This document shows positions 9,272 to 47,883 of a DNA stretch of 64,000 bases, piece by piece. Positions within the stretch are counted from its first letter, which is position 1; each line of letters begins with the position of its first letter. The notes under the pieces are model-generated. The model searched no databases. It was given only the letters and a program-made list of their open reading frames with translations, and was not told where the DNA came from. The translations under genes were made by a program, and so were the position numbers. Origin of the DNA: Candidatus Omnitrophota bacterium (lineage in GTDB: Bacteria > Omnitrophota > Gorgyraeia > Gorgyraeales > Gorgyraeaceae). The stretch spans positions 1,600-65,599 of the forward strand of contig JBDRJN010000003.1 in the NCBI GenBank assembly GCA_043814965.1. The letters are read 5' to 3'.

Positions 9272-9284
9272 AATTTTTATCCCA

Positions 9285-25108: not shown

Positions 25109-26409
25109 TTTAAAAGCTCCGTTACTTTTGCGAGAGTGCTTCCGTCGTCTATTTCTTTACGCAGGCGGTCTTCGGCTTCAAGAACGCTCATCGCCCTGTT
25201 GGCGACTTCTACTATATGGCCTTTCGGTATTACCATGACCCCGTCATCATCCCCAATGATATAATCCCCGGGGAATATCCTTCTATTGTCGATCATTATC
25301 GGTACATTGATCTCTCCAAAGCCTTTTGGTTCTCCAGCAGAAGACATGATAAGTTTTGTAAATATAGGAAATCTTACTTTTTTGATCTCTTCGACATCTC
25401 TTATAGCGCCATACACTACACATCCTGCTACTTTTTTTTGTATCGCGCCATGCGTAGCAAGCTCTCCCCATATAGCAGGGCCTACACCTCCTGAATCTAT
25501 GACGATGACTTCTCCTGGTTGAGCGCTGTCAATAGCCTCTACTGGCTTTGACCAATCCCCTGGATATGTCCTTACAGTTATAGCTGGGCCAAACATCTTT
25601 ATACCAGGCAATATTGAAAAAATGCCTTCCAAAGGCCTGATCCTGTGCATTGCATCTGAGACATTGGCGGATGATACGCGGTTTAATATCGATGTTATAT
25701 CTTTGAGGGAGGACCTTTTAAAGAGATCCGTTTTTATTGCCTTAAGTGTTGTGATAGACTTTTTTATTTTTTGAGCAGCTTCTTTAGCGTCCTTTGATTT
25801 ATTAAGAGCTCCTCCTACTATTACAATAGAAGCCCCTGATTTTATTGCCAGAGGCGCTGTCTCTGAATTGATACCTCCTGCTACAGCTATAGGTAAAGAT
25901 GTTATCTTGGATATCTCTTTTAATTCTAAAAAAGGGTCCTTTGCGTGCATCTGGTCATCAATAGAACAATGTATCCCTATATAGTCCACTCCCAGTTTTT
26001 CTACGGCTTTTACCCGGTTTTTTATGTCTTTTACAGCAATAAGGTCTACTTGTATCTTTGCCCCGTAGTTATGCGCTGCTTCGACGCATTCTTTTATTGT
26101 AGCATCGCTTGCTGCGCCAAGTACGCATACTACATTGGCGCCTGATTTTGCAGCTATCTCTACTTCTGTGCGGCCGGCATCCATGATCTTCATATCAGCG
26201 ACAATAGTCTTTTTGGGAAATAGCTTTCTTAAGCTCCTTACAGCATTCAGGCCTTCGCTTTTTATTAGAGGCGTCCCTGCCTCTATCCAGTCCGCGCCTC
26301 CGCTGACAGCTTCACCTGCGCACTTTAGGGCTCTTTTTAGGTCTATAAAATCCAAAGCTACCTGTAATACTGGTTTCATGACGCTACCTTTTTTTGTTTT
26401 TTGGCACAC
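25093..26409 (-). CDS. Fusion protein: 3-hexulose-6-phosphate synthase (OMPDC-family) N-domain plus RraA/DlpA-like C-domain
   Basis: N-terminal MKPVLQVALDFIDL...ADWIEAGTPLI...DMKIMDAG is the HPS/KGPDC pattern. The C-terminal region resembles RraA-like proteins (GDWSKPVEAI...VIDSGGV...GELAT). Confidence 0.7.
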   Translation of the reverse strand: MCQKTKKGSVMKPVLQVALDFIDLKRALKCAGEAVSGGADWIEAGTPLIKSEGLNAVRSLRKLFPKKTIVADMKIMDAGRTEVEIAAKSGANVVCVLGAASDATIKECVEAAHNYGAKIQVDLIAVKDIKNRVKAVEKLGVDYIGIHCSIDDQMHAKDPFLELKEISKITSLPIAVAGGINSETAPLAIKSGASIVIVGGALNKSKDAKEAAQKIKKSITTLKAIKTDLFKRSSLKDITSILNRVSSANVSDAMHRIRPLEGIFSILPGIKMFGPAITVRTYPGDWSKPVEAIDSAQPGEVIVIDSGGVGPAIWGELATHGAIQKKVAGCVVYGAIRDVEEIKKVRFPIFTKLIMSSAGEPKGFGEINVPIMIDNRRIFPGDYIIGDDDGVMVIPKGHIVEVANRAMSVLEAEDRLRKEIDDGSTLAKVTELLKWEKK

Positions 26410-26488
26410 TGAAGTGTGCCCTACAAATTTGCCGCAGCGGCCTTCATAAGCAGGCGCATTAAAATACGCCTATTCTCGGCCTTTGCAA

Positions 26489-26905
26489 TCATTCTCCCAC
26501 GATTTGTACGACTAATTCCCTGGACCTAGGCCTATTGTCAAAATCTATAAATATTATCTGCTGCCATGTCCCGAGCATCATAGAACCATCTGTAAAAGGC
26601 ACTGCTATGCTAGGGCCTAAAAGACTTGCTCTTACATGGCCATAACCATTGCCGTCATTCCAGCGGATATTGTGCTGGTAAGCTGCTTTCTCAGGGATTA
26701 TCTTTTCAAAAAATACTTTCAAGTCTTCTACCAGCCCAGGCTCGTACTCAACAGTGGTCAGCCCTCCTGTTGAACCAGAGACAAATACAGTGAGGATGCC
26801 TTTTTTTAATTTTGTGGATGAAAGAGCGCTAGCTACCTCACTGGTTATATCTATGATGTCCGTAGAACCCTTTGTTTTGAGTTTTATTTTTTTTGTTATC
26901 ACCAT
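26489..26905 (-). CDS. YjbQ-family protein (UPF0047)
   Basis: 138 aa with the YjbQ-like GILTVFVSGSTGGLTTVEYEPGLVEDL pattern. Confidence 0.75.
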   Translation of the reverse strand: MVITKKIKLKTKGSTDIIDITSEVASALSSTKLKKGILTVFVSGSTGGLTTVEYEPGLVEDLKVFFEKIIPEKAAYQHNIRWNDGNGYGHVRASLLGPSIAVPFTDGSMMLGTWQQIIFIDFDNRPRSRELVVQIVGE

Positions 26906-26907
26906 AG

Positions 26908-27702
26908 TTATTTCTTTCTGTATGCCTCAAGGAACGAGTCGCAATAAAGCTGTTTTTCCATAATAAGTTCCGCAGTTATCACTGCATCCATAAGATCTTT
27001 ATCTCCTACATCCATTATAGCTGCGTCCAGGCCTGAAGATATAGCCATAACAAGGAAAGTTCTATTGATAAGTTCTTTGTATTGTCCAAGAGAGCCTTGA
27101 GACACATTTGATAAACCCAGGACTGTTTTAGGCGCTGGGTCTGAAAGCATCTTTGAATCCCTGATAGTCTTTAGGACCTCTTTTCCATGGCCTTGAGCAA
27201 CATTTACAGGCAGTATTACTGCGTCTAGATACAGCTCTGATATATCAATGCCATGCTCCAAGCACCCTGCTACTATCTTTATCGCGAGCTCCAATCTGCC
27301 CTCGCTGTCATTAGGTATGCCTGATTTATCCATAGTAAGCCCTATTATGGATGTATTGTATTTTTTTGCCAAAGGGAATAAAGTATCCATCTTATCCTGA
27401 TTGGCATTTACAGAATTTATTATAGGTTTTGATTTGCAGAGTTTAAGCCCTGCTTCCATGACATCAGGTTTTGTGGTATCTATGGCAAGCCGCGCATCAG
27501 TCACTTCTGTAATAGTCTTTACAAGCCACTCCATAGCGTCTTTTGGGTCAGCTGAAGCTGGCCCTACATTGACGTCAAGAGCTGATGCTCCGAGCGAGAC
27601 CTGTTTTTTCGCGAGGTCCTGTATCACGGATTTATTTTTAGTTATTATGGCTTCTTTGACATCTTTGAACATGCCATTTATTCTTTCACCTATCATGAAC
27701 AT
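26908..27702 (-). CDS. acsE: Methyltetrahydrofolate:corrinoid/iron-sulfur protein methyltransferase (pterin-binding)
   Basis: MFMIGERINGMF...LDVNVGPA...LGLSNVSQG, close to Moorella AcsE along its length. 264 aa. Confidence 0.8.
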   Translation of the reverse strand: MFMIGERINGMFKDVKEAIITKNKSVIQDLAKKQVSLGASALDVNVGPASADPKDAMEWLVKTITEVTDARLAIDTTKPDVMEAGLKLCKSKPIINSVNANQDKMDTLFPLAKKYNTSIIGLTMDKSGIPNDSEGRLELAIKIVAGCLEHGIDISELYLDAVILPVNVAQGHGKEVLKTIRDSKMLSDPAPKTVLGLSNVSQGSLGQYKELINRTFLVMAISSGLDAAIMDVGDKDLMDAVITAELIMEKQLYCDSFLEAYRKK

Positions 27703-27792
27703 CCTTATCTCCTCCTATCTTGTATCACTTAACCCGCTTGCCCTCCGTAGCCTTGGCGTAGGAGGGTACCCCGTAACCCATTGCCCGTAACC

Positions 27793-28761
27793 CTAGCAGC
27801 CGACTTTACACAAGTCTCTTATCGCTTCTTTTGTCTTTTTCACTGCTTTTGGATGATTCATCACAAGTATGTCGCAGCCTGCATTTAGATATGAAAGCGC
27901 TGTCGCGGTCTCAAGAAGAGCTCCCCTGTCTTTTGGGCCTCCCCATTCCTTGGATGCCTCTCCCCCTGTCTTTGCTTCTTTTGTACGCCAGACCTCATGG
28001 CCTATAAAATTTATCATAGGCATTGAAAGCATCTTATCTCCTGATAGTCCTGCAAGCCGCGTCCTCTCCATTATAGAGTAGGTATATTCCAGGCCGTACC
28101 CCAGAGCGCCTGTCGCGTGATGTATCACGATCTTATCTTTCGGGAATTGCATATCGCATATAAGTATATTGAGCTGTTTTGCGATATTTATGTCTATAGG
28201 GGCCTCTGCTATTATAGAATGTCCTGCGCTTAATGCCGCAGCAGTCAGGGTCTTATAGTTTTCTTGTGAGGCTATTCCGAATAAACAATTCTCGCCTTTT
28301 GCAACATCAGTGCAGTGTATCATGACATCATTGTCTTTTTCAGGAGAAGAAGAGCCTATCACTATGAGAGGAACTGATATATTCTTAAGCATGTTCTCCA
28401 AGACTTTTCCCGCGTCATCTACTGATGTATTTTTTGTATCAGGATGAGTGCTCGCCAGCCTCAAACATATAAGGTCAGCATTGTATTTTTCTACACATAG
28501 CTTTGCCCATTGTACAGGGTCTTTAAGAGCATTTCCGAAGTTCTCTTTTAAGGCCTCTGACCATGCTTCTCCAGGATCCATGTCCCATACTTCCATAGCA
28601 ACAACCGGAGGGTTTGGGCATTTATCCTCATCATTTATAAAAAATATACCTGTTTCTCCACCGACTTTTATTGTCTTTGACCTTGAGCCGCCCTCTTCCT
28701 TGGCTGCTCCTATTTTGACCTCACTTATTCTGTCCTGCCATTTATCCATGACCCTATCCAT
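27793..28761 (-). CDS. acsD: Corrinoid iron-sulfur protein small (delta) subunit
   Basis: 322 aa with the TIM-barrel CFeSP small-subunit pattern. It is in synteny with acsE and cooC. Confidence 0.8.
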   Translation of the reverse strand: MDRVMDKWQDRISEVKIGAAKEEGGSRSKTIKVGGETGIFFINDEDKCPNPPVVAMEVWDMDPGEAWSEALKENFGNALKDPVQWAKLCVEKYNADLICLRLASTHPDTKNTSVDDAGKVLENMLKNISVPLIVIGSSSPEKDNDVMIHCTDVAKGENCLFGIASQENYKTLTAAALSAGHSIIAEAPIDINIAKQLNILICDMQFPKDKIVIHHATGALGYGLEYTYSIMERTRLAGLSGDKMLSMPMINFIGHEVWRTKEAKTGGEASKEWGGPKDRGALLETATALSYLNAGCDILVMNHPKAVKKTKEAIRDLCKVGC

Positions 28762-29505
28762 TCATACCCCCGCTTTTTTTGATATCTTGTCGATTATCTT
28801 TGATAAGCCTTCAGCGTCTTCCGTAGGCTTTACTTCAATACCTTGTTCACTATCTATGGCAATAGATTCATTGTAAGAAAAATAACCATCTAATGCAAGC
28901 CCGGAATCTTTGATCAGTTTTAATTTGCTTTCTTCCAGAAGCGCCTTGGCCTTATTTACAATAAGTGATATATCTTTTACTTTCAGGCCGGCTGACCTTG
29001 CTGTATTGAACGCGTGTATAGCTGAGTCAAGGCCGACCTTTGTAGTGTCACTTACAAGTAAAAGCAGGTCTATCTCGTTTGCGGTCCTTCGGCTCAAGTG
29101 TTCCATGCCAGCTTCATTGTCTATTATGATAAATCTGTAATTTTTTCCAAGCCTCACCAGGTAATCTCTCAACATGTTGTTTACCGCGCAATAGCATCCG
29201 CTGCCCTCGGGACGCCCCATGACAAGTAGGTCCACGCCTTTTCCTTCCGAGACAGCCTCTTCTATCTTGAGGTTGAAGAAATCGCTTTTTGATAGGCCTT
29301 TTGACTCGAGAGACCTTGCTTCTTCCCTGATATCAGCTATGGTCTCGTCATAAGAAAGTCCTAACGCAATATCTAAATTGGAGTTCGGATCTGCGTCGAC
29401 CGCAAGGATAGGGCTATCAATTTTTAAAAGCAGTCTTATCAAAATAGAAGATATCGTGGTCTTGCCTACTCCGCCTTTTCCTGCGACTGCGATCGTGTAT
29501 GCCAT
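28762..29505 (-). CDS. cooC: CooC/AcsF-type Ni-insertion ATPase (MinD/ParA fold)
   Basis: MAYTIAVAGKGGVGKTTISS deviant Walker A, 247 aa. Confidence 0.8.
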   Translation of the reverse strand: MAYTIAVAGKGGVGKTTISSILIRLLLKIDSPILAVDADPNSNLDIALGLSYDETIADIREEARSLESKGLSKSDFFNLKIEEAVSEGKGVDLLVMGRPEGSGCYCAVNNMLRDYLVRLGKNYRFIIIDNEAGMEHLSRRTANEIDLLLLVSDTTKVGLDSAIHAFNTARSAGLKVKDISLIVNKAKALLEESKLKLIKDSGLALDGYFSYNESIAIDSEQGIEVKPTEDAEGLSKIIDKISKKAGV

Positions 29506-29536
29506 ATGTAATTTGTTGCGCGTTATCCGTAACCCT

Positions 29537-31483
29537 TTACCCTTTACCCGTCAATGCCTTCTTCACTGATGGAAATATCTCTATGTCAGTATGCGGCAAA
29601 AAAAGCGACGCGCTATAGTTATTCATAAAAGACGCATTTGTGCTTAGGTCTATATAAGTGGTCTTATTGGCTATAGCATAAGCTTCCTCCATTGCGTCGC
29701 TTGAAAGCAGAGCTAACTTTGCGCCGCTTATAGATGTGTTACCTAAAAACTCGAATATTCCTTCATCCATATCCGGCAAGAGCCCTATATTAATGCTTGA
29801 ACGTATATCAAGGGCAGTCCCCAGCCCTCCTGCTATATAGACATGCTTTATATCGGATCTTTTACAGCCTATTTCTTTTAAGACCGTCTCTATGCCTGTA
29901 AAGATAGCGCCTTTTGAGTTTATGATGTTTTTTATATCATTCTCTGTTATCACTATGTCTTTTTTGACAGCTGAATCTTTTTTATCGCAGAGGACCACTT
30001 CTTTTGAGCCATCTTCGGATATTCTAGTCTTAAGGATAGAATTGTCTTTTATTTTACCTGAGCGGTCTATTACCTTATTTTCAAGGAAAACACTTATTGC
30101 ATCTATCGCCCCAGAACCGCATATACCTTTTGGCAGAGCATCACCGATAGTCTCGAGGACTAATCTTTTATTTTTTATGGACACTTTTTGTATAGCGCCT
30201 TTCATCGCGCGGATACCAGAAGCTAATCCGCCTCCCTCGAAACAAGGCCCTGCAGAAGTAGAGCATGCGACAAAATAATCTTTATTCCCTATAGCGACCT
30301 CTCCATTTGTGCCAAGGTCTATAAATAAAGATGTCTCTTTTAACCTGTTCATCCCGGAGGCAAGTATCCCGCCTACGATATCCCCTCCTACATAACTTCC
30401 TACGCAGGGCAGGCATGCCAGAAGCCCTCTTGGGTTTATTTTTATACCAGCTTCGATAGCGCGTATTACAGGCATAAAACTCACTGCAGGGATATAAGGG
30501 TCTTTACGTATGTACTCGGGGTTTATTTTTAAAAGAAGATGCAGCATGGTAGTGTTTCCAGCTGACATGCAGGCTGTTATATCATTAAGCGTGATCTTGT
30601 GTTCTTCTGTAAGTCCGCCTATCAACACATTTATCGTATCTATTACAGCGTGATGCAGCCTCTCAAGCCCTGCTTCTTCTTTTGCGTATATGATCCTCGA
30701 TATCACGTCCTCGCCAAAATCTACCTGGGGATTATAACTTGCTTTTGCCCCGAGCACTTTTTGGGTCTTTAGGTCAACGAGATAACATACTATTGTAGTC
30801 GTACCTATATCCAATGCTATTCCAAGGTTTTTGTTGGATTTATCGCCTGGTTCTATGAGGACTATCTCTGTAGTGCCGTTCCTATTGCCGAGGGTAACTG
30901 TCACTTCCCAGTCAGATTCCCTAAGAAGCCTCGGGAGTTTTTTGATATTAGCGAGGCCTATCTGCATTATAGATATATTTCTCCCATCTTTTATAGCTCT
31001 GAATACTCTCTCTACATCAGAGATACTGTCATCAAGTGTCGGAGGTTTTAATTTTAGAAATAACTTTGTTGAAAGCGGGCCGTGCTTAAAGATCGTTTTT
31101 TCTTTTTTATAAAGAGCTTCTTCTATCTCTTCAGCAGGCGTATAGAGGCCGGCTAAACGCTTCTTTTTAGCCTCACCTGTGAGCACCTCAAGGTCTCCCA
31201 ACCTTGATTCTTCCGGTATAAGTACCTCTAGATTGGATTCTGGGAATGTCCTACAAGCGAGCACATAGCCTTTGGAGCGCTCTTTCTGGGATATCCTGCC
31301 GCTTTGCTCTGTGGTGTAGTCGCCTTTTTTTATTATGGCCTTGCATCTCCCGCAGACACCATCTCCCCCACAGCTATTATATATATGTATGCCGGATTTA
31401 ATACTAGCTGTTAATAGATCCGTGCCTTTCTGGACCTTGATAGACCTGTTTTCAGGTAGGAATTTTATTATAAATTCTTCCAT
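29537..31483 (-). CDS. RACo-type reductive activator of corrinoid Fe-S protein (2Fe-2S ferredoxin N-domain plus ASKHA ATPase, DUF4445)
   Basis: N-terminal CGGDGVCGRCK 2Fe-2S motif and a C-terminal ASKHA-like region. 648 aa, directly upstream of acsF-acsD-acsE. Confidence 0.7.
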   Translation of the reverse strand: MEEFIIKFLPENRSIKVQKGTDLLTASIKSGIHIYNSCGGDGVCGRCKAIIKKGDYTTEQSGRISQKERSKGYVLACRTFPESNLEVLIPEESRLGDLEVLTGEAKKKRLAGLYTPAEEIEEALYKKEKTIFKHGPLSTKLFLKLKPPTLDDSISDVERVFRAIKDGRNISIMQIGLANIKKLPRLLRESDWEVTVTLGNRNGTTEIVLIEPGDKSNKNLGIALDIGTTTIVCYLVDLKTQKVLGAKASYNPQVDFGEDVISRIIYAKEEAGLERLHHAVIDTINVLIGGLTEEHKITLNDITACMSAGNTTMLHLLLKINPEYIRKDPYIPAVSFMPVIRAIEAGIKINPRGLLACLPCVGSYVGGDIVGGILASGMNRLKETSLFIDLGTNGEVAIGNKDYFVACSTSAGPCFEGGGLASGIRAMKGAIQKVSIKNKRLVLETIGDALPKGICGSGAIDAISVFLENKVIDRSGKIKDNSILKTRISEDGSKEVVLCDKKDSAVKKDIVITENDIKNIINSKGAIFTGIETVLKEIGCKRSDIKHVYIAGGLGTALDIRSSINIGLLPDMDEGIFEFLGNTSISGAKLALLSSDAMEEAYAIANKTTYIDLSTNASFMNNYSASLFLPHTDIEIFPSVKKALTGKG

Positions 31484-31493
31484 AATAGATTAA

Positions 31494-31522
31494 ATTGTAA
31501 CATGTAAGGAAAATCGGGTCAA
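31494..31522 (-). promoter_or_regulatory. Candidate sigma70 promoter for the RACo-acsF-acsD-acsE unit
   Basis: Minus strand reads TTGACC-17nt-TACAAT. The -10 ends about 10 nt from the RACo ATG and there is no SD, so the transcript may be leaderless. Confidence 0.4.
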
Positions 31523-31565
31523 GGGAAATGGTGGGAATGATGCTTTTTTACAATATACGGAATAT

Positions 31566-31601
31566 ACAACGTAGGGGAGCTTTAAAGCTCCCCTACGTTG
31601 T
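31566..31601. repeat. GTAG...TTAA...CTAC palindromic hairpin, copy H1 (36-nt perfect palindrome)
   Basis: acaacGTAGGGGAGCTTTAAAGCTCCCCTACgttgt, downstream of the lipoprotein gene. There is no U-tract. Confidence 0.6.
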
Positions 31602-31627
31602 ATGTCAGATAATATTATAGAATACTA

Positions 31628-31930
31628 TTACTTCTGTTTTACTTTTAACTCTGTTCCGCAATTTGGGCAATACTGTACGCCTGATGAAAAATCTGCTCCG
31701 CAATCAGGGCAGAACTTTGTATCCATCGCATCGCCTACCAATGCTCCTCCAGCTGCGCCAGCTGCTCCTCCTATAAGAGCGCCTTCAGCAGCATGTCCTG
31801 ACTGATGGCCTATTATAGCCCCAGCCCCGGCGCCTATCAAAGTACCTATACCAGCGCCTTTTTGCGTGCCAGTGCAGCCGACTACGAAAGCCAGCAATAA
31901 CAGGATAACTAAAACTGTATATTTTTTCAT
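31628..31930 (-). CDS. Lipoprotein with glycine-zipper region fused to a C-terminal zinc-ribbon (CPDCG...CPNCG)
   Basis: Start reassigned to the second ATG, which is preceded by SD AAGGAGGAG. There is a lipobox AFVVGC, a GxxxG-rich segment and CxxC...CxxC. Confidence 0.6.
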   Translation of the reverse strand: MKKYTVLVILLLLAFVVGCTGTQKGAGIGTLIGAGAGAIIGHQSGHAAEGALIGGAAGAAGGALVGDAMDTKFCPDCGADFSSGVQYCPNCGTELKVKQK

Positions 31931-31957
31931 GTTGCTCCTCCTTTTCAATAATTTCAT

Positions 31958-31985
31958 ATTATAGCATCTATTTTTGTATAATCAA
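31958..31985 (-). promoter_or_regulatory. Candidate sigma70 promoter for the lipoprotein gene
   Basis: Minus strand reads TTGATT-16nt-TATAAT, followed by a strong SD. Confidence 0.4.
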
Positions 31986-32019
31986 GTTTATTTGTGAAGC
32001 CAAAAAAAGAGAGGGCGCG

Positions 32020-32421
32020 TTATTGTTTTTCCAGGGAAAACTTTTTTTGAGGATAATTCACGGTAAGGATGAAATTGTTCAAGAAACTTCTCACACCTAA
32101 AAGCGGGACATAAAGGTTGGGCATAAAGTCTATGAGAGTTTCTTTAATAACAATACCTGATATCTCAATGCGCACAGTATGAGAATATGCTGTGGTTTTC
32201 CCGTTACCGGTATTTATCTCCTTAGCTGTGCCTGCCTGAAGATTATGGCCTAATATAGCAGCATAAGATGCTGGCAAAGCGCATTCATCTGCTCCTGTAT
32301 CGATCAACCCTAATACTTTAACCTTTTTATTAGAATGCGGATTAACTATAGTAACAGGCAGCCATGGCCTTGAAATGTCATCAGAGCTTAGCTTTGTAAA
32401 AGGAATGCTTGAAAGTTCCAT
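32020..32421 (-). CDS. Retropepsin-like (clan AA) aspartic protease
   Basis: VLGLIDTGADECALP contains the D(T/S)GA catalytic motif. 133 aa. Confidence 0.6.
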   Translation of the reverse strand: MELSSIPFTKLSSDDISRPWLPVTIVNPHSNKKVKVLGLIDTGADECALPASYAAILGHNLQAGTAKEINTGNGKTTAYSHTVRIEISGIVIKETLIDFMPNLYVPLLGVRSFLNNFILTVNYPQKKFSLEKQ

Positions 32422-32609
32422 TAATATATCTGGACCATGTCCTTGGTAGGAATAAATAGTATTACAGGATCAGGATATCCTTGTTTTACTGCTTTATCGT
32501 ATACTTCCTTAGGGTCTTTACCTGTAGCTATAACAACGCTATCGCCAAAATCCTTTATCGCTACATAACTGCCATTATATTTGTTTTCTTTTATAAGTAC
32601 TTGTTCCAT
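32421..32609 (-). CDS. Small hypothetical protein translationally coupled to the aspartic protease
   Basis: 62-aa ORF with an SD AGAGAGGT and a 1-nt stop/start overlap (TAATG) with the downstream gene. Confidence 0.4.
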   Translation of the reverse strand: MEQVLIKENKYNGSYVAIKDFGDSVVIATGKDPKEVYDKAVKQGYPDPVILFIPTKDMVQIY

Positions 32610-32658
32610 GCCATACCTCTCTTTTGTGTTGATATAATGTTACCATGCCCTGCCTTGT

Positions 32659-32701
32659 ATAGCAAGGTAAAAAAAGCGGAGCGCGTTATCCTGTTTTCTT
32701 A
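32659..32701 (-). terminator. Rho-independent terminator (minus strand)
   Basis: 12-bp stem CGGgGCGCGTTA / TAACGCGCtCCG with one G.U pair and an 11-nt loop, followed directly by CUUUUUUU. Confidence 0.5.
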
Positions 32702-32752
32702 ACGCGCCCCGATATTTGCTACTCTATTGCCTCCTGCCTACTTATCCACATT

Positions 32753-32778
32753 GTAGGGGACACTTAAGTGCCCCCTAC
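32753..32778. repeat. GTAG...TTAA...CTAC palindromic hairpin, copy H2
   Basis: GTAGGGGACACTTAAGTGCCCCCTAC, 25/26 palindromic. Confidence 0.55.
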
Positions 32779-32962
32779 ATCTCGTTGTTACCCCTGTTTT
32801 ATCCCTCGCCGCATCATGTCATTACCCCTCGTTTCGTAATGTCGTTCAAGGGAAACTCGGGGTTATTTTTTGAGCTTACGCTCAAAAAATAAAAAAACCG
32901 AACCCTTTCAAATAAAAGGCTCTGCCATAAATAAAAATAACTTTCTTGGCAACCCGGCTGTC

Positions 32963-32988
32963 CTGATCAATTGTAGCAGACACTTAAG
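32963..32988. repeat. GTAG...TTAA...CTAC palindromic hairpin, copy H3 (compensatory stem variant)
   Basis: GTAGCAGACACTTAAGTGTCTGCTAC is a perfect palindrome. The inner stem GGGA/TCCC of other copies is replaced by CAGA/TCTG. Confidence 0.55.
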
Positions 32989-33224
32989 TGTCTGCTACCT
33001 CATAATTGAGGACCCGTGGCTTTGCGTCCTGTGATTGCTCACAGTTTGCCCTTTTACTGAAAGTAAAAGTATAATTCAATATTCAGTTGTCATGTTGGAA
33101 AATTTAGTTTGCCTCCTTATTATTAAGTACTTCTGATCCTAATATAAATATACCATAGGTTTATGAGGATTCAATAGCAATTGGGTAAAAATCTTAGGTA
33201 TTTTTAGAAATTTCAGGTATTTTA

Positions 33225-33309
33225 GCCAAGAAAACGGTTACTAAAGGGAAAACCGTATCAGATCCCGCATCTTAATAGTAAAAATAACTACTTCTATAGA
33301 TGCGGGATC
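33225..33309 (-). terminator. Two hairpins immediately downstream of lepB (candidate lepB terminator region)
   Basis: A 12-bp perfect stem GATCCCGCATCT...AGATGCGGGATC (33261-33309) begins 4 nt after the lepB stop. A second hairpin ACGGTT...AACCGT (33234-33256) is followed on the minus strand by UUUUCUU. On the plus strand the first hairpin is followed by TTATTTATTTTAT, so it could act bidirectionally. Confidence 0.4.
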
Positions 33310-33313
33310 TTAT

Positions 33314-33880
33314 TTATTTTATAAGGCGGATCCTTGAGATCGGCCAGTAGATCAGAAATGCCTTTCCTAACAGGTATTTTTGAGGCATAAAACCCCAGTA
33401 TCTACTGTCTCTACTTGATATACTATTGTCTCCGAGCATGTAGTATGCGTCGCCTGGTATCTCAAGGTCCTTGCCTTCTTCTGCAAAATCCCCTCTATTG
33501 TAGTAGTATATCTCATTTATTATCGAACCTTTTTCAACTGCCCTGTCATTTATGAGTATTGTGCCATTTGATATCTTTAGATTTTCACCTGGAAGGCCAA
33601 CGACCCTTTTTATAAAATCTTTTTTCTTGTCCTCCGGAGAGATAAATACTGCGACATCTCCTCTTTCTGGATTTTTAAATTTGTAGATAAACTTATTGAC
33701 CAATATCCTATCACCCTCTATTAAGGTCGGCCTCATAGAGCCTGTAGGTATCTTAAAAGCCTGGACAACAAAGGTCCTTATAATGAGAGCGAGGAGCACT
33801 GCTATGATTATTGGTTCTATCCATTCTTTCATCAAGTATCGCATTTTTTCATTTTTATACAGTAAACTCTTAATATTCAT
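33314..33880 (-). CDS. lepB: Signal peptidase I
   Basis: GDNSISSRDSRYWGFMPQ box E region and an N-terminal TM helix. 188 aa. Confidence 0.85.
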   Translation of the reverse strand: MNIKSLLYKNEKMRYLMKEWIEPIIIAVLLALIIRTFVVQAFKIPTGSMRPTLIEGDRILVNKFIYKFKNPERGDVAVFISPEDKKKDFIKRVVGLPGENLKISNGTILINDRAVEKGSIINEIYYYNRGDFAEEGKDLEIPGDAYYMLGDNSISSRDSRYWGFMPQKYLLGKAFLIYWPISRIRLIK

Positions 33881-33891
33881 AGTTACCTTTC

Positions 33892-35685
33892 TTATATCTT
33901 TAGAGCTGCTAAAAATGCTTCCTGGGGGATCTGGACCTTACCAAACTGCTTGAGGCGTTTTTTTCCTTGTTTTTGTTTTTCCCAAAGCTTTCTTTTACGT
34001 GTTATGTCTCCGCCGTAGCATTTGCTGGTGACGTCTTTGCCTAGGGGTTTTACTCTTGAGCGCGCTAATATCTTGCTTCCTATAGCAGCCTGTATTATTA
34101 CTTCAAATAACTGCCTTGGGATAAGCTCTTTTAGTTTTTCTGCCAGAGCCCTGCCCTTGAAATCCGCCTTATCTCTATGCGCTATGGAAGAAAGAGCTTC
34201 ACATATCTGTCCATTTATCAATATGTCCAGCTTTATGAGGTCGCTTGTCCTGTAGCCTATGACTTCATAATCTAAAGACCCATACCCACGCGTCATTGAT
34301 TTTATCTTGTCATAAAAATCTACTATTATCTCAGATAAAGGCATCTCAAAGACAAGTTTTATTTTGTCCAAAGACAAGTATTCTGTTGACTGGTATTCTC
34401 CTCTTTTTGACTTACACAGCTCTATGACCATGCTTAAGCTATCTTGAGGTATCATGATATATGTTACTACATAGGGCTCTTTGATCTCTAATATGTTTTG
34501 AGGGTCAGGGATCTTATTTGGATTGTCCACTTCAAATTCCTTGCCTTTTTTATCAGTGACTCTATAGACTACGCTGGGTGTAGTGAGGACAAGGTCAAGG
34601 TCGTATTCTCTCTCAAGCCTTTCCTGCACTATTTCCATATGCAGAAGCCCTAAAAATCCGCACCTATAGCCGAATCCCAGAGATTGAGAGCTTTCTATTT
34701 CATATATGAATGAAGCATCGCTTAACTTAAACTTAGCTACAGCTGCTTTTAGTTCATCAAAATCACCCGCGTTTACTGGATAGATACCGCAAAATACCAT
34801 TGGTTTTATCTGCTTGTAGCCCGGAAGGGGCTTACTGGCAGGGTTTTTTGCGCTAGTTATAGTGTCTCCATCAGTGACGTCTTTGGCTTCTTTGAGCTGA
34901 CATGTGATATAACCTACCTCTCCTGAAGAAAGTTCTTCGATAGGCTCCATTGTAGGCTTAAAAATACCCACTTCCTGAATCTCATATTTTTTTGAAGAAA
35001 ACATCATCTGTATATGCATACCTTTCCTGAGGACGCCATTTACTACCCTTATATAGACTATCACCCCTCTATAGCTATCGTACATAGAATCAAAGATAAG
35101 CGCTTGCAAGGGGTCTTGAATGTTTCCTGTCGGAGGCGGTACATCCTTTACTATCCTTTCCAATATGTCTTCAGTGCCAATACCTTCTTTGGCGCTGGCA
35201 AGGATTATATGTTCGTCCTCTATTTTTAATATGCTTTTGACTTCTTCCAGGACCCTTTCAGGTTCGGCGTTTTGCAGGTCGATCTTGTTTAAGACAGGGA
35301 TTATTACAAGATTCTTTTCCTGCGCCTGCTGTAGGTTTGCCACGGTCTGAGCTTCTACGCCCTGCGCAGCGTCTACTAGGAGTATCGCGCCTTCGCATGC
35401 AGAAAGAGATTTTGCTACTTCATAACTAAAATCAACGTGTCCGGGTGTGTCTATGAGGTTGAGTTCATAAGTAACCCCGTCTTTTGCCTTGTAAGACAAT
35501 CTTACTGCGCTCGCCTTTATGGTGATCCCGCGTTCTCTCTCGAGGTCCATGTCATCCAGCATCTGGGCCCTGAACTGCCTATCATTTACAGTATGAGTAA
35601 ACTGAATGAGCCTGTCAGCCAGGGTAGACTTGCCATGGTCTATGTGAGCGATTATGCAAAAGTTTCTGATCTTGCTGTTTTCCAT
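33892..35685 (-). CDS. lepA: Elongation factor 4 (LepA)
   Basis: NFCIIAHIDHGKSTLADRL G-domain and the LepA-specific C-terminus. 597 aa. Confidence 0.9.
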   Translation of the reverse strand: MENSKIRNFCIIAHIDHGKSTLADRLIQFTHTVNDRQFRAQMLDDMDLERERGITIKASAVRLSYKAKDGVTYELNLIDTPGHVDFSYEVAKSLSACEGAILLVDAAQGVEAQTVANLQQAQEKNLVIIPVLNKIDLQNAEPERVLEEVKSILKIEDEHIILASAKEGIGTEDILERIVKDVPPPTGNIQDPLQALIFDSMYDSYRGVIVYIRVVNGVLRKGMHIQMMFSSKKYEIQEVGIFKPTMEPIEELSSGEVGYITCQLKEAKDVTDGDTITSAKNPASKPLPGYKQIKPMVFCGIYPVNAGDFDELKAAVAKFKLSDASFIYEIESSQSLGFGYRCGFLGLLHMEIVQERLEREYDLDLVLTTPSVVYRVTDKKGKEFEVDNPNKIPDPQNILEIKEPYVVTYIMIPQDSLSMVIELCKSKRGEYQSTEYLSLDKIKLVFEMPLSEIIVDFYDKIKSMTRGYGSLDYEVIGYRTSDLIKLDILINGQICEALSSIAHRDKADFKGRALAEKLKELIPRQLFEVIIQAAIGSKILARSRVKPLGKDVTSKCYGGDITRKRKLWEKQKQGKKRLKQFGKVQIPQEAFLAALKI

Positions 35686-42959: not shown

Positions 42960-44921
42960 TTAGTCTATGATCGTTTCGCACTCGGGGATCGAGTTTAGGA
43001 AAGTCTGGCCGTATGGTTTGTCTATTATGCGGCTATCGAGGATGGCTATTATGCCTGTGTCGGATTTACTTCTTATGAGCCTTCCGAACCCTTGTTTGAA
43101 CCTCAACACTGCTTCAGGTAAACTATACTCCAAAAATGCATCCCTGCCTTTATTTTTTATGTCATCCATCCTGGCCTGTGTTATCGGGTGGTCAGGGACC
43201 TGGAAAGGCAGTTTTGTTATTATGACATTAGAGAGCGCTTCGCCCTGGACATCCACTCCCTGCCAAAAACTGTCAACGCCAAAAAGAATAGACCCTTTTT
43301 GTTTTTTAAAATCCCTCAACATCTTGCTCCTATCAAGCCCATTGTCTTGCTTTAACACGTTAAACTTTTTCTCTGCAAAAAAATCCTCAAGCTCTTCATA
43401 GACCATGTTCATGAGAGAATAACTTGTAAAAAGCACAAATGCGTTTCCGCTGGTAAGCCCTACCAGCTTTTTGATCTTTTGGGATGATGCCCTGGCAAAA
43501 TCTACCAAGTGATTAGGGTTTGGCATGCCCTTGGCTATATACATCCGGACCTGTTTTTTGTAATCAAATGATGAGCCTAGCTTTAGTTCCCTGGCATTTT
43601 TTATGCCTAAGCGGCTCTTGAAATACAAAAAAGAAGCATTGTCTATGGAAAGCGTAGCGCTTGTAAATATCGTGGCCTTTTCCATAGAATAAAGCCTTTC
43701 TTCCATTATCTCGCCTATATTTACTGGCGCAATATTGATAGAGACCTTGCTGGACCTATCTTTTCCTGAACACTCCATCCAATAGACATGATTATCGAGG
43801 TCATGCCTCAATATGATATCAAGGGACGTCTTTATGTCGCTTATCTTTTTTATAAGGGACGTTAATTCTACCTGCCCTTCTTTATCGTCAGTATCTTTCT
43901 TGGAATCCATAAGGCTCTCTATCAGCTTTGTCAAAGGCGCCTGGAGGCTGTTTTCTATAAAATCCGGGGTATTGATCATCATGGAATCAGATTTATTGTC
44001 TTTTGCATGGCTTTCGAAATATTTCTTTATTTTTTTAAAAAAACTTTCACTTTTTTTCCGTACTGCCTGCGACCATTCCATGGAATCCTGGGAACCTACG
44101 GTAAGCAAGATACCTTTTTGTTTTTGAGGATTGAATAAAAGGTCCATGAGATATCTTATATAAGAATTGGATACGCTTAAGCCCAGGTGCTCTGTAGCTA
44201 CGTTCTCTATAGAATGCGCTTCGTCAAAGACAATAGTATCATAGTCAGGCAATATAGATTTACTTTCTTCGCTCATGGCTAAATTTGAAAAGAACAGGCT
44301 GTGATTGATGACCAATATCTTTGCATTATCTATCTTTTCCCTGGCATTTTGAAAAAAACAGGCCTTAAAATAAGGGCAGGCCTTTCCCATGCAGTTTTCT
44401 GGATCCGATGAGACCATGTCCCATACTTTTCTATCTATCTTTTCGTCCAGGTCATAGAGCGAGCCATCGGATGTCCTGTAAGACCATGCTGTTACCCTGG
44501 CAAACTGCATCACCTCGTTCTCGTCTGAAAAAAGGTCTTTTTGCTTAAAATCAGACCTTCTCAGCCTTCTAAGGCATAGATAATTCCCTCTGCCTTTTAC
44601 AAGTACTGCCTTAAAATCAATACCCAGGGCGTTTTCTAAAAAAGGTATGTCCTTATGTATGATCTGTTCCTGTAGATTGATCGTGTTTGTGGATATGACG
44701 GCTACGGAGTCTTTTTTTAGCGTGTATTGCGCTATAGGGATAAGATATGAAAAGCTTTTTCCGACACCAGTACCAGCCTCGACAATAAGCGTCTCGGATC
44801 TAGAGATAGCATCTTTTATTGCCTCTGCCATCTCGACCTGTTCAGGCCTCTTTTCATAGCCTGGCAAAACTTTCGCTATAGGCCCTGATTCATCGAATAT
44901 ATTTTCTATATAATTACTCAT
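42960..44921 (-). CDS. dinG: DinG/Rad3-family ATP-dependent DNA helicase
   Basis: GTGVGKS Walker A, DEAH box (VFDEAHSIE) and the C-terminal helicase motifs. 653 aa. Confidence 0.75.
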   Translation of the reverse strand: MSNYIENIFDESGPIAKVLPGYEKRPEQVEMAEAIKDAISRSETLIVEAGTGVGKSFSYLIPIAQYTLKKDSVAVISTNTINLQEQIIHKDIPFLENALGIDFKAVLVKGRGNYLCLRRLRRSDFKQKDLFSDENEVMQFARVTAWSYRTSDGSLYDLDEKIDRKVWDMVSSDPENCMGKACPYFKACFFQNAREKIDNAKILVINHSLFFSNLAMSEESKSILPDYDTIVFDEAHSIENVATEHLGLSVSNSYIRYLMDLLFNPQKQKGILLTVGSQDSMEWSQAVRKKSESFFKKIKKYFESHAKDNKSDSMMINTPDFIENSLQAPLTKLIESLMDSKKDTDDKEGQVELTSLIKKISDIKTSLDIILRHDLDNHVYWMECSGKDRSSKVSINIAPVNIGEIMEERLYSMEKATIFTSATLSIDNASFLYFKSRLGIKNARELKLGSSFDYKKQVRMYIAKGMPNPNHLVDFARASSQKIKKLVGLTSGNAFVLFTSYSLMNMVYEELEDFFAEKKFNVLKQDNGLDRSKMLRDFKKQKGSILFGVDSFWQGVDVQGEALSNVIITKLPFQVPDHPITQARMDDIKNKGRDAFLEYSLPEAVLRFKQGFGRLIRSKSDTGIIAILDSRIIDKPYGQTFLNSIPECETIID

Positions 44922-44958
44922 AATTTATTCCTTGCCAACCAAGAACAAATAAAGCTGC

Positions 44959-45120
44959 ATCCTGCCTGTCTGTGAGTGCTGTTTGAGAGGCCTTTTTCTT
45001 TTGAGCGGGCACGGTTCGCCCTTATGTATATCAGGCGGGAGCGAAAAAGAAAACGGAGTAAAATTTCCACGCCGGGGAAATTTTACGTCCTCGAGAACAG
45101 TACTCACAGGCAGGCAGGAT
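44959..45120 (+). repeat. Structured repeat element, copy 1 (about 162 nt) closed by a 25-bp terminal inverted repeat
   Basis: TIR ATCCTGCCTGTCTGTGAGTGCTGTT / AACAGTACTCACAGGCAGGCAGGAT (23/25). The internal core is about 90% identical to the reverse complement of 55692-55844. It abuts the plsY stop codon. Confidence 0.6.
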
Positions 45121-45752
45121 CATCTCTTACTTTTACTAAAGAGCTTTATTTTTCTTTCTTCGCCTTCTTTTAGGCGTTTTATGTTGGAGCGGTGCTTATA
45201 TACTATCACTATGCATAATAGTGACATCACGACCACTATTTCTGTGCTTTTATTGAATAAGAACGTCAGGATAGGTATTGCGATAGCTGCTACGATAGAA
45301 GCCAGCGACACATAACCTGTTACACCAAACACAACCGCCCATACAATAAAGCCAAGTATAAAGATCTTCGGTATAAGCCCTACTATCACGCCTGCGCTGG
45401 TTGCTACGCCTTTTCCGCCTTTGAACCTAAGGAACACTGTCCAGTTATGGCCTGCTATCACTGATAGGCCCATGAGTACTTTATATAATTCTGGCCTTGT
45501 AAAAGGAGCTATATACATAAATAGATCTGCAAGATAAGTTACCGCGATATAGCCTTTTAGCATATCTGCTAGGAGGACTACGATACCAGGGGCTTTACCA
45601 ACAACCCTGAATGTATTGGTAGCGCCTATATTACCGCTTCCGAACTGCCTTATATCAATACCTTTTACGATCTTTCCAGCAATATAGGCAGTAGGTATAG
45701 AGCCTATGATGTATGTTACCAACAGGCCTAAAGATAATACAAGATATGACAT
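45120..45752 (-). CDS. plsY: Glycerol-3-phosphate acyltransferase PlsY
   Basis: SGNIGATNTFRVVG motif, 210 aa, polytopic. Confidence 0.85.
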   Translation of the reverse strand: MSYLVLSLGLLVTYIIGSIPTAYIAGKIVKGIDIRQFGSGNIGATNTFRVVGKAPGIVVLLADMLKGYIAVTYLADLFMYIAPFTRPELYKVLMGLSVIAGHNWTVFLRFKGGKGVATSAGVIVGLIPKIFILGFIVWAVVFGVTGYVSLASIVAAIAIPILTFLFNKSTEIVVVMSLLCIVIVYKHRSNIKRLKEGEERKIKLFSKSKR

Positions 45753-45801
45753 AACTGCTCCTTATAAGTTTGACTTCGCAGCCAACTTATTAAAAACAAC
45801 A

Positions 45802-46362: not shown

Positions 46363-46438
46363 AATTTACGCAACTGAAAGGAGAGTAAATTGTATGAGCG
46401 AATTTATCCCGAGTCCCTCGCGTCACACATTATTCAAT

Positions 46439-46458
46439 AAAGACCCTCGGGACGAGGG
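46439..46458 (-). terminator. Weak hairpin/terminator candidate after acsC
   Basis: CCCTCG-UCC-CGAGGG followed by UCUUUAUU on the minus strand, 10 nt after the acsC stop. Confidence 0.3.
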
Positions 46459-46467
46459 ATACGTGGT

Positions 46468-47808: not shown

Positions 47809-47883
47809 GATATATCCTTTCTATATTTATATCTTATTTACCCGCCTACGCAATAATAAACTGAATAATAGTTCTGCTACGGC

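Follow-up and report, generated by a model that had tools for sequence, protein, structure and literature searches.

GTAG-tagged palindromic hairpins in an Omnitrophota genome are very probably REP elements served by a RAYT

Four palindromes of 26 nt lie in a 64-kb window of an Omnitrophota genome (the window being the whole stretch of DNA that was analyzed), and we asked what kind of element they represent. An earlier note on this DNA had listed four full copies. In agreement with that count, a search for GTAG-N7-TTAA-N7-CTAC with at most one mismatch returned exactly four matches in the window, against a mean of 0.21 in dinucleotide shuffles, none of 100 of which reached four. A score scan of the window gave six matches at 15 of 19 or better, compared with 0.2 in simulations. 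The window shuffles, the score scan, and the genome scan described below all speak against a chance origin of the palindromes, which we rejected. The sequences quoted earlier for the copies were correct. The third copy had been placed at 32963-32988, which is 10 nt too low; it actually occupies 32973-32998, so a finding that ends at 32988 cuts through it.

Copy 1 (GTAGGGGAGCTTTAAAGCTCCCCTAC, 31571-31596, strand-symmetric) was recovered by the pattern search and forms the center of a perfect palindrome of 40 nt (31564-31603). It lies 3' of a Gly-zipper/zinc-ribbon lipoprotein gene (31628-31957, minus strand) and upstream of the RACo gene (29537-31483, minus strand). Copy 2 (32753-32778) reads GTAGGGGGCACTTAAGTGTCCCCTAC on the minus strand, where it has one G.T wobble, and stands between the terminator of a riboswitch and a second terminator. 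Copy 3 (GTAGCAGACACTTAAGTGTCTGCTAC, strand-symmetric), separated from copy 2 by 220 nt, lies in the P1b apical loop of that riboswitch. Copy 4 (GTAGGGGAGCCTTAAGGCTCCCCTAC, 55769-55794, strand-symmetric) is inside a larger structured repeat between folD-like (55899-56765, minus strand) and metF-like (54735-55625, minus strand) genes. All four full copies fall outside ORFs, as had been claimed, copy 3 being intergenic yet within a riboswitch aptamer. The reported lack of a U-tract also held for all four, on either strand; an intrinsic-terminator scan of 31400-33400 did not call copies 1-3, and the flanks of all four copies are without T-runs. The stems had been described as strictly compensatory, which is accurate for copies 1, 3, and 4 but not for copy 2, whose plus strand carries an A8.C19 mismatch (the G.T wobble of the minus strand). 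At the gathering threshold, Rfam yielded no family for the hairpins themselves anywhere in the window. A search at a laxer E-value covered 32600-33320, and a Spy1786666 match over copy 2 was dismissed as noise (20 bits; gathering score 64).

The degenerate copy listed in the earlier note is real. It occupies 26399-26424 on the minus strand (GTAGGGCACACTTCAGTGTGCCAAAA, read from 26424 to 26399) and consists of GTAG followed by GGCACAC-TTCA-GTGTGCC, the 3' CTAC having been lost. It matches the family at 19 of its first 22 positions and carries a compensatory swap from G-C to C-G at pair 7/20. The spacer that holds it (26380-26490) measures 111 nt in the window and 8 nt in a syntenic relative (L030). 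Membership is uncertain for a GTAG...CTAC palindrome that had been missed earlier (12281-12307, minus strand; GTAGGTTCGGACAATGTCCGAACCTAC). It has 27 nt, a 12-bp stem, and a 3-nt loop, and lies within a cytidylyltransferase-like coding sequence (12203-12679, minus strand) without forming an insertion relative to homologues. The membership of a score-scan match at 27542-27567 is doubtful; it lies in a coding sequence of the same length as in L030.

The genome-wide pattern search proposed in the earlier note revealed a large family. Scanning species-representative genomes, we found the GGGA/CCCC form of the motif in at least 108 stretches from about 44 assemblies, where about two stretches would be expected by chance by our own estimate for a motif of 19 fixed bases and 596 Gb of sequence. 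Nearly all of the matches listed were labelled Omnitrophota (MAGs or SAGs). Across 188 loci plus the window, and counting the window copies, there were 199 GTAG...CTAC palindromes of 26 nt with a TTAA center and at most one stem mismatch. The hairpin has an 11-bp stem, and 92% of cells were paired over 45 distinct variants. Base pairing had been proposed to be under selection, and covariation bore this out: over the 45 variants, all seven variable stem pairs showed double-sided changes, with 84 compensated cells compared to 26 in shuffles, and none of 500 shuffles reached the observed score. GTAG/CTAC and the TTAA center were invariant across the family. The invariant GTAG always has a CTAC opposite it at the 3' end. 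The tag is thus base-paired and can be read on either strand, such that a REP equals its inverted REP. A cluster of restriction sites (CTTAAG or TTTAAA centers) was rejected as an explanation because invariance reaches out to GTAG/CTAC, the stems show covariation, and the hairpins have a RAYT partner.

This partner came from a search for a RAYT/IS200-like gene, which the earlier note had also suggested. With E. coli RayT as query, tblastn returned ORFs in three loci (L023, L027, and L034), each between two hairpins, and a metagenome scan with a RAYT alignment added 22 further close homologues. In these 25 loci from related genomes and metagenomes, all outside the 64-kb window, a 163-aa Y1/HuH protein is encoded between two such hairpins. 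A strict pattern scan placed a hairpin upstream in 23 loci and downstream in 20; those failing the scan have an imperfect or truncated copy, and in L023 the hairpin lies beyond the scan window. The layout at these loci is hairpin, 2-3 nt, TGTGGATAAC, ATG...stop, GTTATCCACA, 2-3 nt, hairpin. The protein matched Pfam Y1_Tnp (PF01797) at E-values of 1e-9 to 1e-13. With 117 bits it also passed the cut-off of 80 for the NCBIfam equivalog NF047646, 'REP-associated tyrosine transposase', but it scored 20-34 bits on the IS200 equivalog, below the cut-off of 55. Among solved structures, E. coli TnpA-REP (4ER8) is its best relative (E 7.5e-10, full length). HLH aligns on HMH and Tyr on Y115, so the HuH motif and catalytic Tyr are kept, and protein identity to E. 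coli RayT is only about 25%.

A comM/yifB-like gene is directly upstream of the RAYT gene in all 22 loci having enough upstream sequence. ComM identities across those loci range from 52% to 100%, and the comM-RAYT order is kept even at 52-58%. This constant position just downstream of comM/yifB suggests that the RAYT is vertically inherited and domesticated. More distant RAYT relatives (L133, L134, L137, and L138) have the classical one-sided GTAG form. In the 64-kb window itself there is no RAYT (the best tblastn match with E. coli RayT had E = 1, and there was none with the Omnitrophota RAYT). Hence, the window hairpins are linked to a RAYT in the source genome by homology with relatives. 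Copy 4 has exactly the sequence of the L023 hairpins that flank the RAYT gene, and L109 contains one hairpin of that sequence as well.

Many copies, copy 4 included, form the center of longer inverted repeats, and the flank TGTGGATAAC starts with TGT, a start common among DDE transposon ends. These observations would suit a DDE-type insertion sequence whose terminal inverted repeats had left MITE-like remnants moved by a classical transposase, an origin to which we give almost no credence. The Y1 RAYT is the only gene consistently bracketed by hairpins, and on reading the loci we noticed, in passing, no DDE transposase beside them. Furthermore, it is the center of the palindrome rather than its outer ends that is conserved, and the outer inverted repeats differ between genomes.

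In our assessment, the 26-nt palindromes are very probably GTAG-tagged REP elements, the non-autonomous DNA hairpins of an Omnitrophota REPtron. The earlier likening to REP/BIME elements stands in its REP part, given the clade-wide family, covariation, RAYT, and turnover, but BIME-type alternating REP/iREP arrays were not seen. Neither BIME arrays nor REPIN-like doublets, which are often considered the mobile unit, are evident in the window. Its copies are singletons, and with a self-complementary unit it makes no sense to speak of inverted pairs. By analogy with the TnpA-REP of E. coli, Stenotrophomonas, and Marinomonas, a RAYT encoded elsewhere in the source genome would bind the hairpin in single-stranded DNA, read the 5' GTAG as a guide, and cut at CT or CA beside the stem. 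The CT would here always be provided by the 3' CTAC. The RAYT would then form a 5'-phosphotyrosine link and join the strand elsewhere, and copies would spread in this manner. Both DNA strands would offer the same substrate because GTAG...CTAC is self-complementary.

The sequences compared show that copies are gained and lost at orthologous and paralogous sites alike. The earlier suggestion that the hairpin is independently mobile or independently recruited gained from both kinds of site, as spacers of relatives are without copies and the structured repeat occurs with and without a REP. Orthologous spacers, whose comparison had been recommended, differed in hairpin content from two relatives (L030 and L012). 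In the L030 spacer, the place of copy 1 is taken by an unrelated terminator (A-run, hairpin, and T-run). Elsewhere, a hairpin of L030 belongs to an insert of 152 nt at a site that spans 10 nt in the window, and a hairpin in L012 has no counterpart in the window. The paralogous comparison concerns the structured repeat, which is roughly 170-200 nt long with a 24-30-bp closing stem and internal hairpins (z = -10.2). As had been noticed, one hairpin (REP copy 4) is inside copy 2 of this repeat (55669-55867, minus strand); copy 1 of the repeat (44959-45120, plus strand) is without it. The whole repeat at 44959-45120 is missing from the orthologous spacer of L012, and no counterpart of the repeat, apart from the REP itself, appeared in any locus retrieved. 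The observed insertions included no clean 26-nt events with recognizable target duplications; REP copy 4, for instance, lies in a 51-nt segment in place of 10 nt of repeat copy 1.

The site of copy 3 is a c-di-GMP-I-GGC riboswitch aptamer (32944-33059, minus strand; RF03167, 62.6 bits against a gathering score of 59), after which comes a terminator-like hairpin with a T-run (32922-32900, minus strand). Copy 3 lies inside a 36-nt insertion in the apical loop of P1b, the second hairpin of the aptamer. Both aptamer hairpins are kept in the predicted fold of the riboswitch with copy 3, and a homologous riboswitch in L096 is without a REP at this place. Structured context conserved around hairpins in five other loci (L017, L028, L043, L048, and L101) had no Rfam match.

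Spacer types, the distribution of which had been another proposed check, were assigned for 147 copies. Most lie in tandem spacers (90), with 9 in convergent and 7 in divergent spacers; 13 overlap an ORF edge, and 13 are at locus ends where one neighbor gene is not visible. The other 15 fall within ORFs predicted at 90 aa or longer; in each case the hairpin is read in the one frame that is open and gives xRGGLNLPY or xRGHLSVPY. In a dTDP-glucose 4,6-dehydratase, the hairpin is an 8-aa insertion relative to 1BXK.

The 90 copies between tandem genes could be taken to mean that the hairpins serve above all as RNA signals of the host (terminators lacking a U-tract, attenuators, or stabilizers of mRNA 3' ends), selected site by site, with the RAYT association incidental. 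Copy 1 is exactly at the place of the L030 terminator, some variants have G.T pairs on the strand having the DnaA-box-like 9-mer (see below) 3' of the hairpin, and E. coli REPs have been credited with such roles (PMC8266576). We nevertheless consider this quite improbable. No U-tract follows any window copy, and the self-complementarity is perfect even in the 4-nt center, which is unexpected for an RNA loop. Copies are found inside ORFs, a riboswitch stem, and another repeat, and are lacking from orthologous spacers of relatives. Finally, the RAYT lies between hairpins or their recognizable remnants in all 25 loci. Secondary use of some copies by the host is compatible with an RNA role, but not as the origin of the family. 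Having settled as a REP element, a copy could possibly act as a stable stem-loop in DNA or RNA, such as a 3'-end stabilizer or attenuator, and this may apply to copy 1, at the place of an intrinsic terminator in a relative.

A perfect match to a DnaA-box-like 9-mer, TTATCCACA, lies at 32742-32750 on the plus strand, 2 nt from the foot of copy 2, and is the sole perfect occurrence in the window. Its geometry is the same as at RAYT gene ends in relatives, where a perfect 9-mer is present downstream in 24 and upstream in 18 of the 25 loci. Over 816 kb, 44 of 64 perfect 9-mers sit 2-3 nt from a hairpin. Counted by hairpin, the perfect 9-mer adjoins about a quarter of the dispersed copies and is absent on both sides of 108 of 147. 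This proximity, together with the perfect dyad symmetry and the invariant GTAG/CTAC and TTAA center, might indicate that the palindromes are duplex sites for a dimeric protein, forming a DnaA-related or nucleoid-organizing set instead of mobile DNA. We regard such a role as highly improbable. The stem between the invariant blocks varies freely while pairing is kept, which points to recognition of the folded strand and not of duplex sequence. Moreover, the 108 hairpins are without a perfect box, some copies are in frame inside genes, and the RAYT association explains enough.

With the hairpins read as REP elements, the 9-mer could be a working DnaA site that couples REP/RAYT activity or RAYT expression to the replication initiator, which we view as rather unlikely. 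If true, opening of the duplex by DnaA could present the hairpin in single-stranded form, or the REP population could serve as a dispersed DnaA-titrating reservoir. Combined with the strand-symmetric GTAG...CTAC, this would represent a mechanistically distinct REPtron variant. Searching the 188 loci and the window by tblastn with DnaA domain IV revealed no dnaA gene. Another idea, that hairpin plus box donates a promoter or ribosome-binding site, was dropped because a co-oriented ORF start within 100 nt was present for 21 of 43 oriented units, which is about chance in a 90%-coding genome.

Known REPs are 20-50-nt palindromes preceded by GTAG, which guides the choice of CT/CA cleavage site; their RAYT genes are single-copy and REP-flanked, and REPs inside genes are known (PMC3733652, PMC8266576, PMC5581495). 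GTAG REPs occur in the PVC superphylum, including Opitutus terrae and Rhodopirellula baltica, and Omnitrophota is not among the taxa listed by Di Nocera et al. 2013 (PMC3733652). In common with that GTAG-tagged superfamily, the Omnitrophota hairpins are short GC-rich stem-loops with a conserved GTAG, form sub-families set apart by complementary stem changes, lie mostly between unidirectional genes with some copies inside genes, and flank RAYT genes. They differ in that the GTAG is paired with a 3' CTAC in a perfect 26-nt palindrome without orientation, whereas the published tag is described as unpaired at one end (PMC3733652). The TTAA center is also invariant, and the TTATCCACA 9-mer often adjoins the hairpin.

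In E. coli, the TnpA-REP (RayT/YafM, 4ER8) that is the best solved relative of the Omnitrophota RAYT belongs to a group 2 REPtron and is encoded by a single-copy gene flanked by REPs, as the Omnitrophota RAYT apparently is too. GTAG, shared by the Omnitrophota hairpins, is essential there (PMC8266576). However, the palindromes of E. coli REPs are longer and imperfect, with a bulge that is obligatory and a GTAG that stays unpaired; these REPs are organized in BIMEs, and TnpA-REP takes REP but not iREP as substrate. Group 3 REPtrons of Stenotrophomonas maltophilia and Marinomonas MWYL1 (Corneloup et al. 2021, PMC8266576) have short perfectly paired stems, as here, and mismatches abolish cleavage there. 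Their GTAG is the guide selecting CT or CA cleavage sites, and their loop (TTTA in Marinomonas) is read by sequence, as the invariant TTAA of the Omnitrophota hairpins may be. They differ in having 5-bp stems, with 2 nt between stem and GTAG in Marinomonas, and in lacking a 3' CTAC and a DnaA-box-like flank. As with REPINs (Bertels and Rainey 2011, PMC3116915; PMC5581495), the repeats apparently form a non-autonomous population that depends on a single-copy RAYT passed on vertically, and the RAYT gene has a conserved neighbor, which is comM in Omnitrophota. A REPIN, however, is a doublet of two inverted REPs plus a spacer, whereas the Omnitrophota repeat is one self-complementary hairpin, which in some genomes tops a longer hairpin specific to that genome.

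Two features of the Omnitrophota hairpins are unusual: the pairing of GTAG with CTAC, and the perfect DnaA-box 9-mer 2-3 nt from many of them. Rickettsia palindromic elements are in-frame palindromic insertions of 100-150 bp in genes, and have no known RAYT partner. As with those elements, copies are tolerated in frame (here xRGGLNLPY) and in structured RNAs (here the riboswitch P1b loop). The outside end of IS50/Tn5, a DDE transposon that works on duplex DNA, has a DnaA box. The Omnitrophota hairpins share with it the placement of a consensus-like DnaA box, in their case a putative one, in the end of a transposable element.

The hairpins and their RAYT are apparently a known kind of element that was not yet described in Omnitrophota; the literature searched held no paper tying REP/RAYT to the phylum. 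The window hairpins are ordinary selfish or domesticated repeat DNA and no new regulatory system. These results add Omnitrophota, whose members are known almost exclusively from metagenomes, to the range of REP/RAYT systems and provide GTAG-N7-TTAA-N7-CTAC as a simple annotation signature for the phylum. The signature explains odd 8-9-residue protein inserts (xRGGLNLPY) and extra stems in structured RNAs of Omnitrophota. The self-complementary design, in which REP and inverted REP are the same, is a natural test of how a RAYT uses the GTAG guide, and the tight link between hairpin and consensus DnaA box is a lead on possible host-factor involvement.

Searching the window for GTAG-N7-TTAA-N7-CTAC with up to one mismatch returned exactly four sites, the number of full copies claimed in the earlier note, whose quoted sequences were correct. 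Copies 1 (31571-31596), 3 (32973-32998) and 4 (55769-55794) are perfect palindromes, with copy 3 lying 10 nt further along than the 32963-32988 originally given. Copy 2 (32753-32778) contains one A.C mismatch on the forward strand, equivalent to a G.T pair on the reverse strand, so the compensation described as strict holds for the three perfect palindromes and not for copy 2. Chance expectation for the pattern was a mean of 0.21 sites, with none of 100 dinucleotide-preserving shuffles reaching four, and a position-by-position score scan identified six window sites at ≥ 15/19 versus 0.2 in simulated sequence. None of the four full copies overlapped an ORF, none had a T-run 3' of it, and a terminator scan called none of copies 1-3, in agreement with their description as intergenic and lacking a U-tract. 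The proposed degenerate half-copy reads GTAGGGCACACTTCAGTGTGCC on the reverse strand, agrees with the family at 19 of its first 22 positions, has lost the 3' CTAC, and has pair 7/20 switched from G-C to C-G, a compensatory change. Judged by its sequence, it is a true relative of the hairpin family.

The genome-wide search suggested earlier was performed on one genome per GTDB species (596 Gb) using the pattern GTAGGGGANNNTTAANNNNCCCCTAC, which has 19 fixed bases. It returned at least 108 stretches, with about 44 assemblies among the matches listed and approximately two hits estimated by chance. Labels among the matches listed were almost all Candidatus Omnitrophota or Omnitrophica, with a few 'uncultured Planctomycetia'. 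A relaxed pattern occurred 147 times in the listed loci and the window, 71 of these being the dominant form GTAGGGGAGGTTTAAACCTCCCCTAC. Across the window and 188 loci fetched from related genomes and metagenomes, there were 199 GTAG...CTAC palindromes of 26 nt centred on TTAA with no more than one stem mismatch; very few palindromes had another length. At the gathering threshold over the window, the 26-nt hairpins had no Rfam match. Stem covariation, as claimed, was evident in 45 distinct variants at variable positions free of scan-pattern constraint: all seven variable stem pairs showed double-sided changes, 92% of cells were paired, and 84 cells were compensated versus 26 in column shuffles (0 of 500 reaching the observed value). 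Sliding the partner columns destroyed this signal.

The earlier note had proposed looking for a RAYT/IS200-like gene (RAYT, REP-associated tyrosine transposase). There is no RAYT within the 64-kb window. Using the E. coli RayT/YafM sequence as a tblastn query against the loci, we obtained three ORFs (E-values of 1e-10 to 3e-8), each between two hairpins: L034 6301-6789, L023 3366-3854, and L027 1235-1723. The encoded 163-aa proteins contain Pfam Y1_Tnp and score 117 bits with the NCBI equivalog 'REP-associated tyrosine transposase', above its cut-off of 80, but fall short of the cut-off for the IS200 model. Among solved structures, the best match is 4ER8 (E. coli TnpA-REP), which aligns over the full length so that the HuH motif and the catalytic tyrosine (Y115) coincide. 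As an independent test, JGI/ENA metagenome contigs were scanned with an alignment of the three proteins, yielding 22 further loci with close homologues (≥ 63% identity) and thus 25 related loci with a RAYT between hairpins or their remnants. The layout, the same for every close homologue, is hairpin, 2-3 nt, TGTGGATAAC, 2-4 nt, ATG through stop, GTTATCCACA, 2-3 nt, and second hairpin. A strict pattern scan found the upstream hairpin in 23 of 25 loci and the downstream hairpin in 20; where it failed, the copy was imperfect or truncated, or lay outside the scan window (L023). Downstream, a variant hairpin is common, either distinct or imperfect (for example GTAGCTGACG... or GTAGATACCG...), and copy 4 of the window is base-for-base identical to a hairpin flanking the RAYT in L023. 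A second Y1_Tnp protein of 228 aa (L064 1617-2303) scored 61 bits against the RAYT model cut-off of 80 and, because it is not flanked by 26-mers, is a different Y1 element of the same MAG.

A comM/yifB-like gene lies immediately upstream of the RAYT in all 22 close-homologue loci with enough upstream sequence, and this adjacency persists at ComM identities as low as 52-58%. Such synteny matches that published for a domesticated RAYT passed on vertically (PMC5581495). More distant RAYTs (35-46% identity; L133, L134, L137, L138) are flanked by classical one-sided pairs of REP and inverted REP (iREP), consisting of GTAG, stem, and TTCA loop without a 3' CTAC. Therefore, from these flanks, the symmetric GTAG...CTAC hairpin looks derived within the clade of close homologues.

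Comparison of orthologous spacers, another suggested check, revealed presence/absence differences. The window is syntenic with two scan loci at about 70% nucleotide identity, L030 (over window 25954-35305) and L012 (over window 42964-49704), and therefore derives from an Omnitrophota genome. The spacer with the degenerate copy (26380-26490) is 111 nt in the window versus 8 nt in L030. Conversely, L030 has a hairpin within 152 nt of inserted sequence where the window separates the two genes by 10 nt (26897-26906), and the hairpin of L012 has no counterpart in window spacer 46216-46474. Because window 31966-33342 corresponds to only 69 nt in L030, it represents an indel island between a lipoprotein gene and lepB; its contents are a riboswitch, copies 2 and 3, and two small genes, one for a DUF5678 protein and one for a retropepsin-like aspartyl protease. 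In L030, an unrelated A-run/hairpin/T-run terminator takes the place of copy 1. Short (GTA)n runs directly precede the hairpin GTAG in some loci, e.g. GTAGTAGTAGTAGTAGTA-GTAGGGG (L012 4890-4930; L051 290-300), and may reflect slippage or repeated processing at GTAG.

Some copies are nested in other elements. As the earlier note observed, copy 4 sits inside one copy of a larger, strongly structured repeat of roughly 170-200 nt (55669-55867, reverse strand), in a 51-nt segment replacing 10 nt, and the other copy (44959-45120, forward strand) has no REP, making this a within-genome case of presence/absence. The closing stem of 24-30 bp differs between the two repeats with pairing kept, inner segments are 93-95% identical, and 55669-55867 has an RNA fold z of -10. 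The repeat had no Rfam match, no counterpart in the fetched loci, and is absent from the orthologous L012 spacer; it may represent a MITE or a family of small RNA genes. Copy 3 lies within a c-di-GMP-I-GGC riboswitch aptamer (RF03167, 62.6 bits versus a gathering score of 59), at the apical loop of the aptamer's second hairpin. Minus the 26-mer, this stem would end TCAATT-ATGAG-AATTGA, and one homologous riboswitch, in L096, is REP-free at that place. The predicted fold keeps both aptamer hairpins, the second merely being longer. On the reverse strand of 32672-33059, downstream of the riboswitch come a terminator (32922-32900), some 190 ORF-free nt that hold copy 2, and a second, canonical terminator (~32712-32672), all of them ahead of the DUF5678 gene (32421-32609) and its promoter region. 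The riboswitch may control a non-coding transcript or be an orphan. Elsewhere, the hairpin caps a longer, conserved one, GTAACAGATTAGCGTAGAGAAGTATC...GGCTAATCTATTAC (L017 4495, L028 5799, L043 678, L048 4512, L101 7359), which is found in several copies and in three different MAGs, lacks an Rfam match, and may be a REPIN-like composite. It is also central in another long inverted repeat, GGGGACGGTTCTATTTTT...AAAAATAGAACCGTCCCC (L002, L013, L058, L060, L093, L096, L103), suggesting nested or composite palindromic elements.

Of the 147 hairpins in the listed loci and window, 15 fell within ORFs predicted at 90 aa or longer, in genomes other than the window's. Several are short ORFs or reading frames that simply extend across the hairpin; long, conserved genes provide the persuasive cases. 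Real genes with an in-frame hairpin were seen at L064 5073, L078 6235, L091 1334, L074 1624, L047 3777, L071 2092, and L102 1306. The hairpin is always in its sole stop-free frame, encoding xRGGLNLPY or xRGHLSVPY. Hosts include giant proteins, an MtnA-like isomerase, a GT1 glycosyltransferase, and a dTDP-glucose 4,6-dehydratase (L064, also L078), in which the REP is an 8-residue insertion relative to E. coli structure 1BXK. One site shared by homologous giant genes of L047 and L071 holds a different hairpin variant in each, the two differing by a compensatory change. Within the window, a weak REP-like site (27542-27567), reading GTAGGGCCAGCTTCAGCTGACCC on the reverse strand in a pterin-binding gene (CDS 26908-27702, reverse strand), is probably not an insertion because its length is the same in L030. 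A perfect GTAG...CTAC palindrome with a 12-bp stem and AAT loop (12281-12307) lies in a cytidylyltransferase (HldE domain II-like) CDS (12203-12679, reverse strand). Its length is far beyond chance, and its stem sequence occurred in 0 of 188 loci. It is not an insertion, since the encoded VGSDIVRTY aligns gap-free with homologous residues of 5X9Q. Two other repeats were apparent in the window. A 32-nt direct repeat (9283-9314 and 9417-9448, 97% identical) covers the 3' part of a tRNA-Gly(CCC) gene (9428-9501, reverse strand); because only one tRNA was called, the second repeat represents a partly duplicated tRNA such as integrative elements leave behind. The other direct repeat, also of 32 nt, is exact (47884-47915 and 48001-48032) and has 117-nt spacing.

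Many hairpins adjoin a 9-mer, TTATCCACA/TGTGGATAA, identical to the consensus DnaA box. There are 64 perfect 9-mers in 816 kb of loci and window, 44 of which are 2-3 nt from a hairpin, and 39 of 147 hairpins have an adjoining 9-mer (34 on one side, 5 on both). The sole perfect 9-mer of the window adjoins copy 2. At RAYT gene ends the 9-mer is nearly invariant, being perfect downstream in 24 of 25 loci and upstream in 18. It may simply be part of an extended stem or of the RAYT recognition site; a candidate DnaA site is a possibility. No dnaA locus was among the fetched sequences, and no paper was found combining the 9-mer with REP or RAYT terms. Box-bearing units did not point preferentially to gene starts: a co-oriented ORF began within 100 nt in 21 of 43 oriented units, close to the chance level for a 90%-coding genome.

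The REP-like reading of the earlier note is borne out by stem covariation, a RAYT partner in relatives, and copy turnover between relatives, alongside the observed hairpin anatomy and synteny. These elements have the defining features of GTAG-tagged REPs and RAYTs, except that GTAG is paired and on both strands, whereas the tag of published families is described as unpaired at one end (PMC3733652). Eight phyla are already on record as having GTAG REPs, with the PVC superphylum among the taxa, and copies within genes have precedent (PMC3733652). The papers searched, a 2026 survey of 176 complete genomes among them, made no mention of REPs or RAYTs in Omnitrophota. In Marinomonas REPs, a TTTA loop is read by sequence, and the invariant TTAA centre is reminiscent of it. 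By analogy with published TnpA-REP work (PMC8266576, PMC3733652), the RAYT would bind the hairpin as a folded single strand, the 5' GTAG would guide the choice of a CT or CA dinucleotide for cleavage, and the 5'-phosphotyrosine intermediate would be resolved by strand transfer. Every hairpin has a CT at its foot, provided by the 3' CTAC, which is exactly complementary to the GTAG guide. Because the hairpin is self-complementary, both strands offer the same substrate, in contrast to E. coli, where processing is confined to REP and excludes iREP. Secondary host use is possible, such as putative 3'-end stabilising at copy 1. Strand symmetry and the DnaA-box-like flank are two unusual traits of Omnitrophota REPs.
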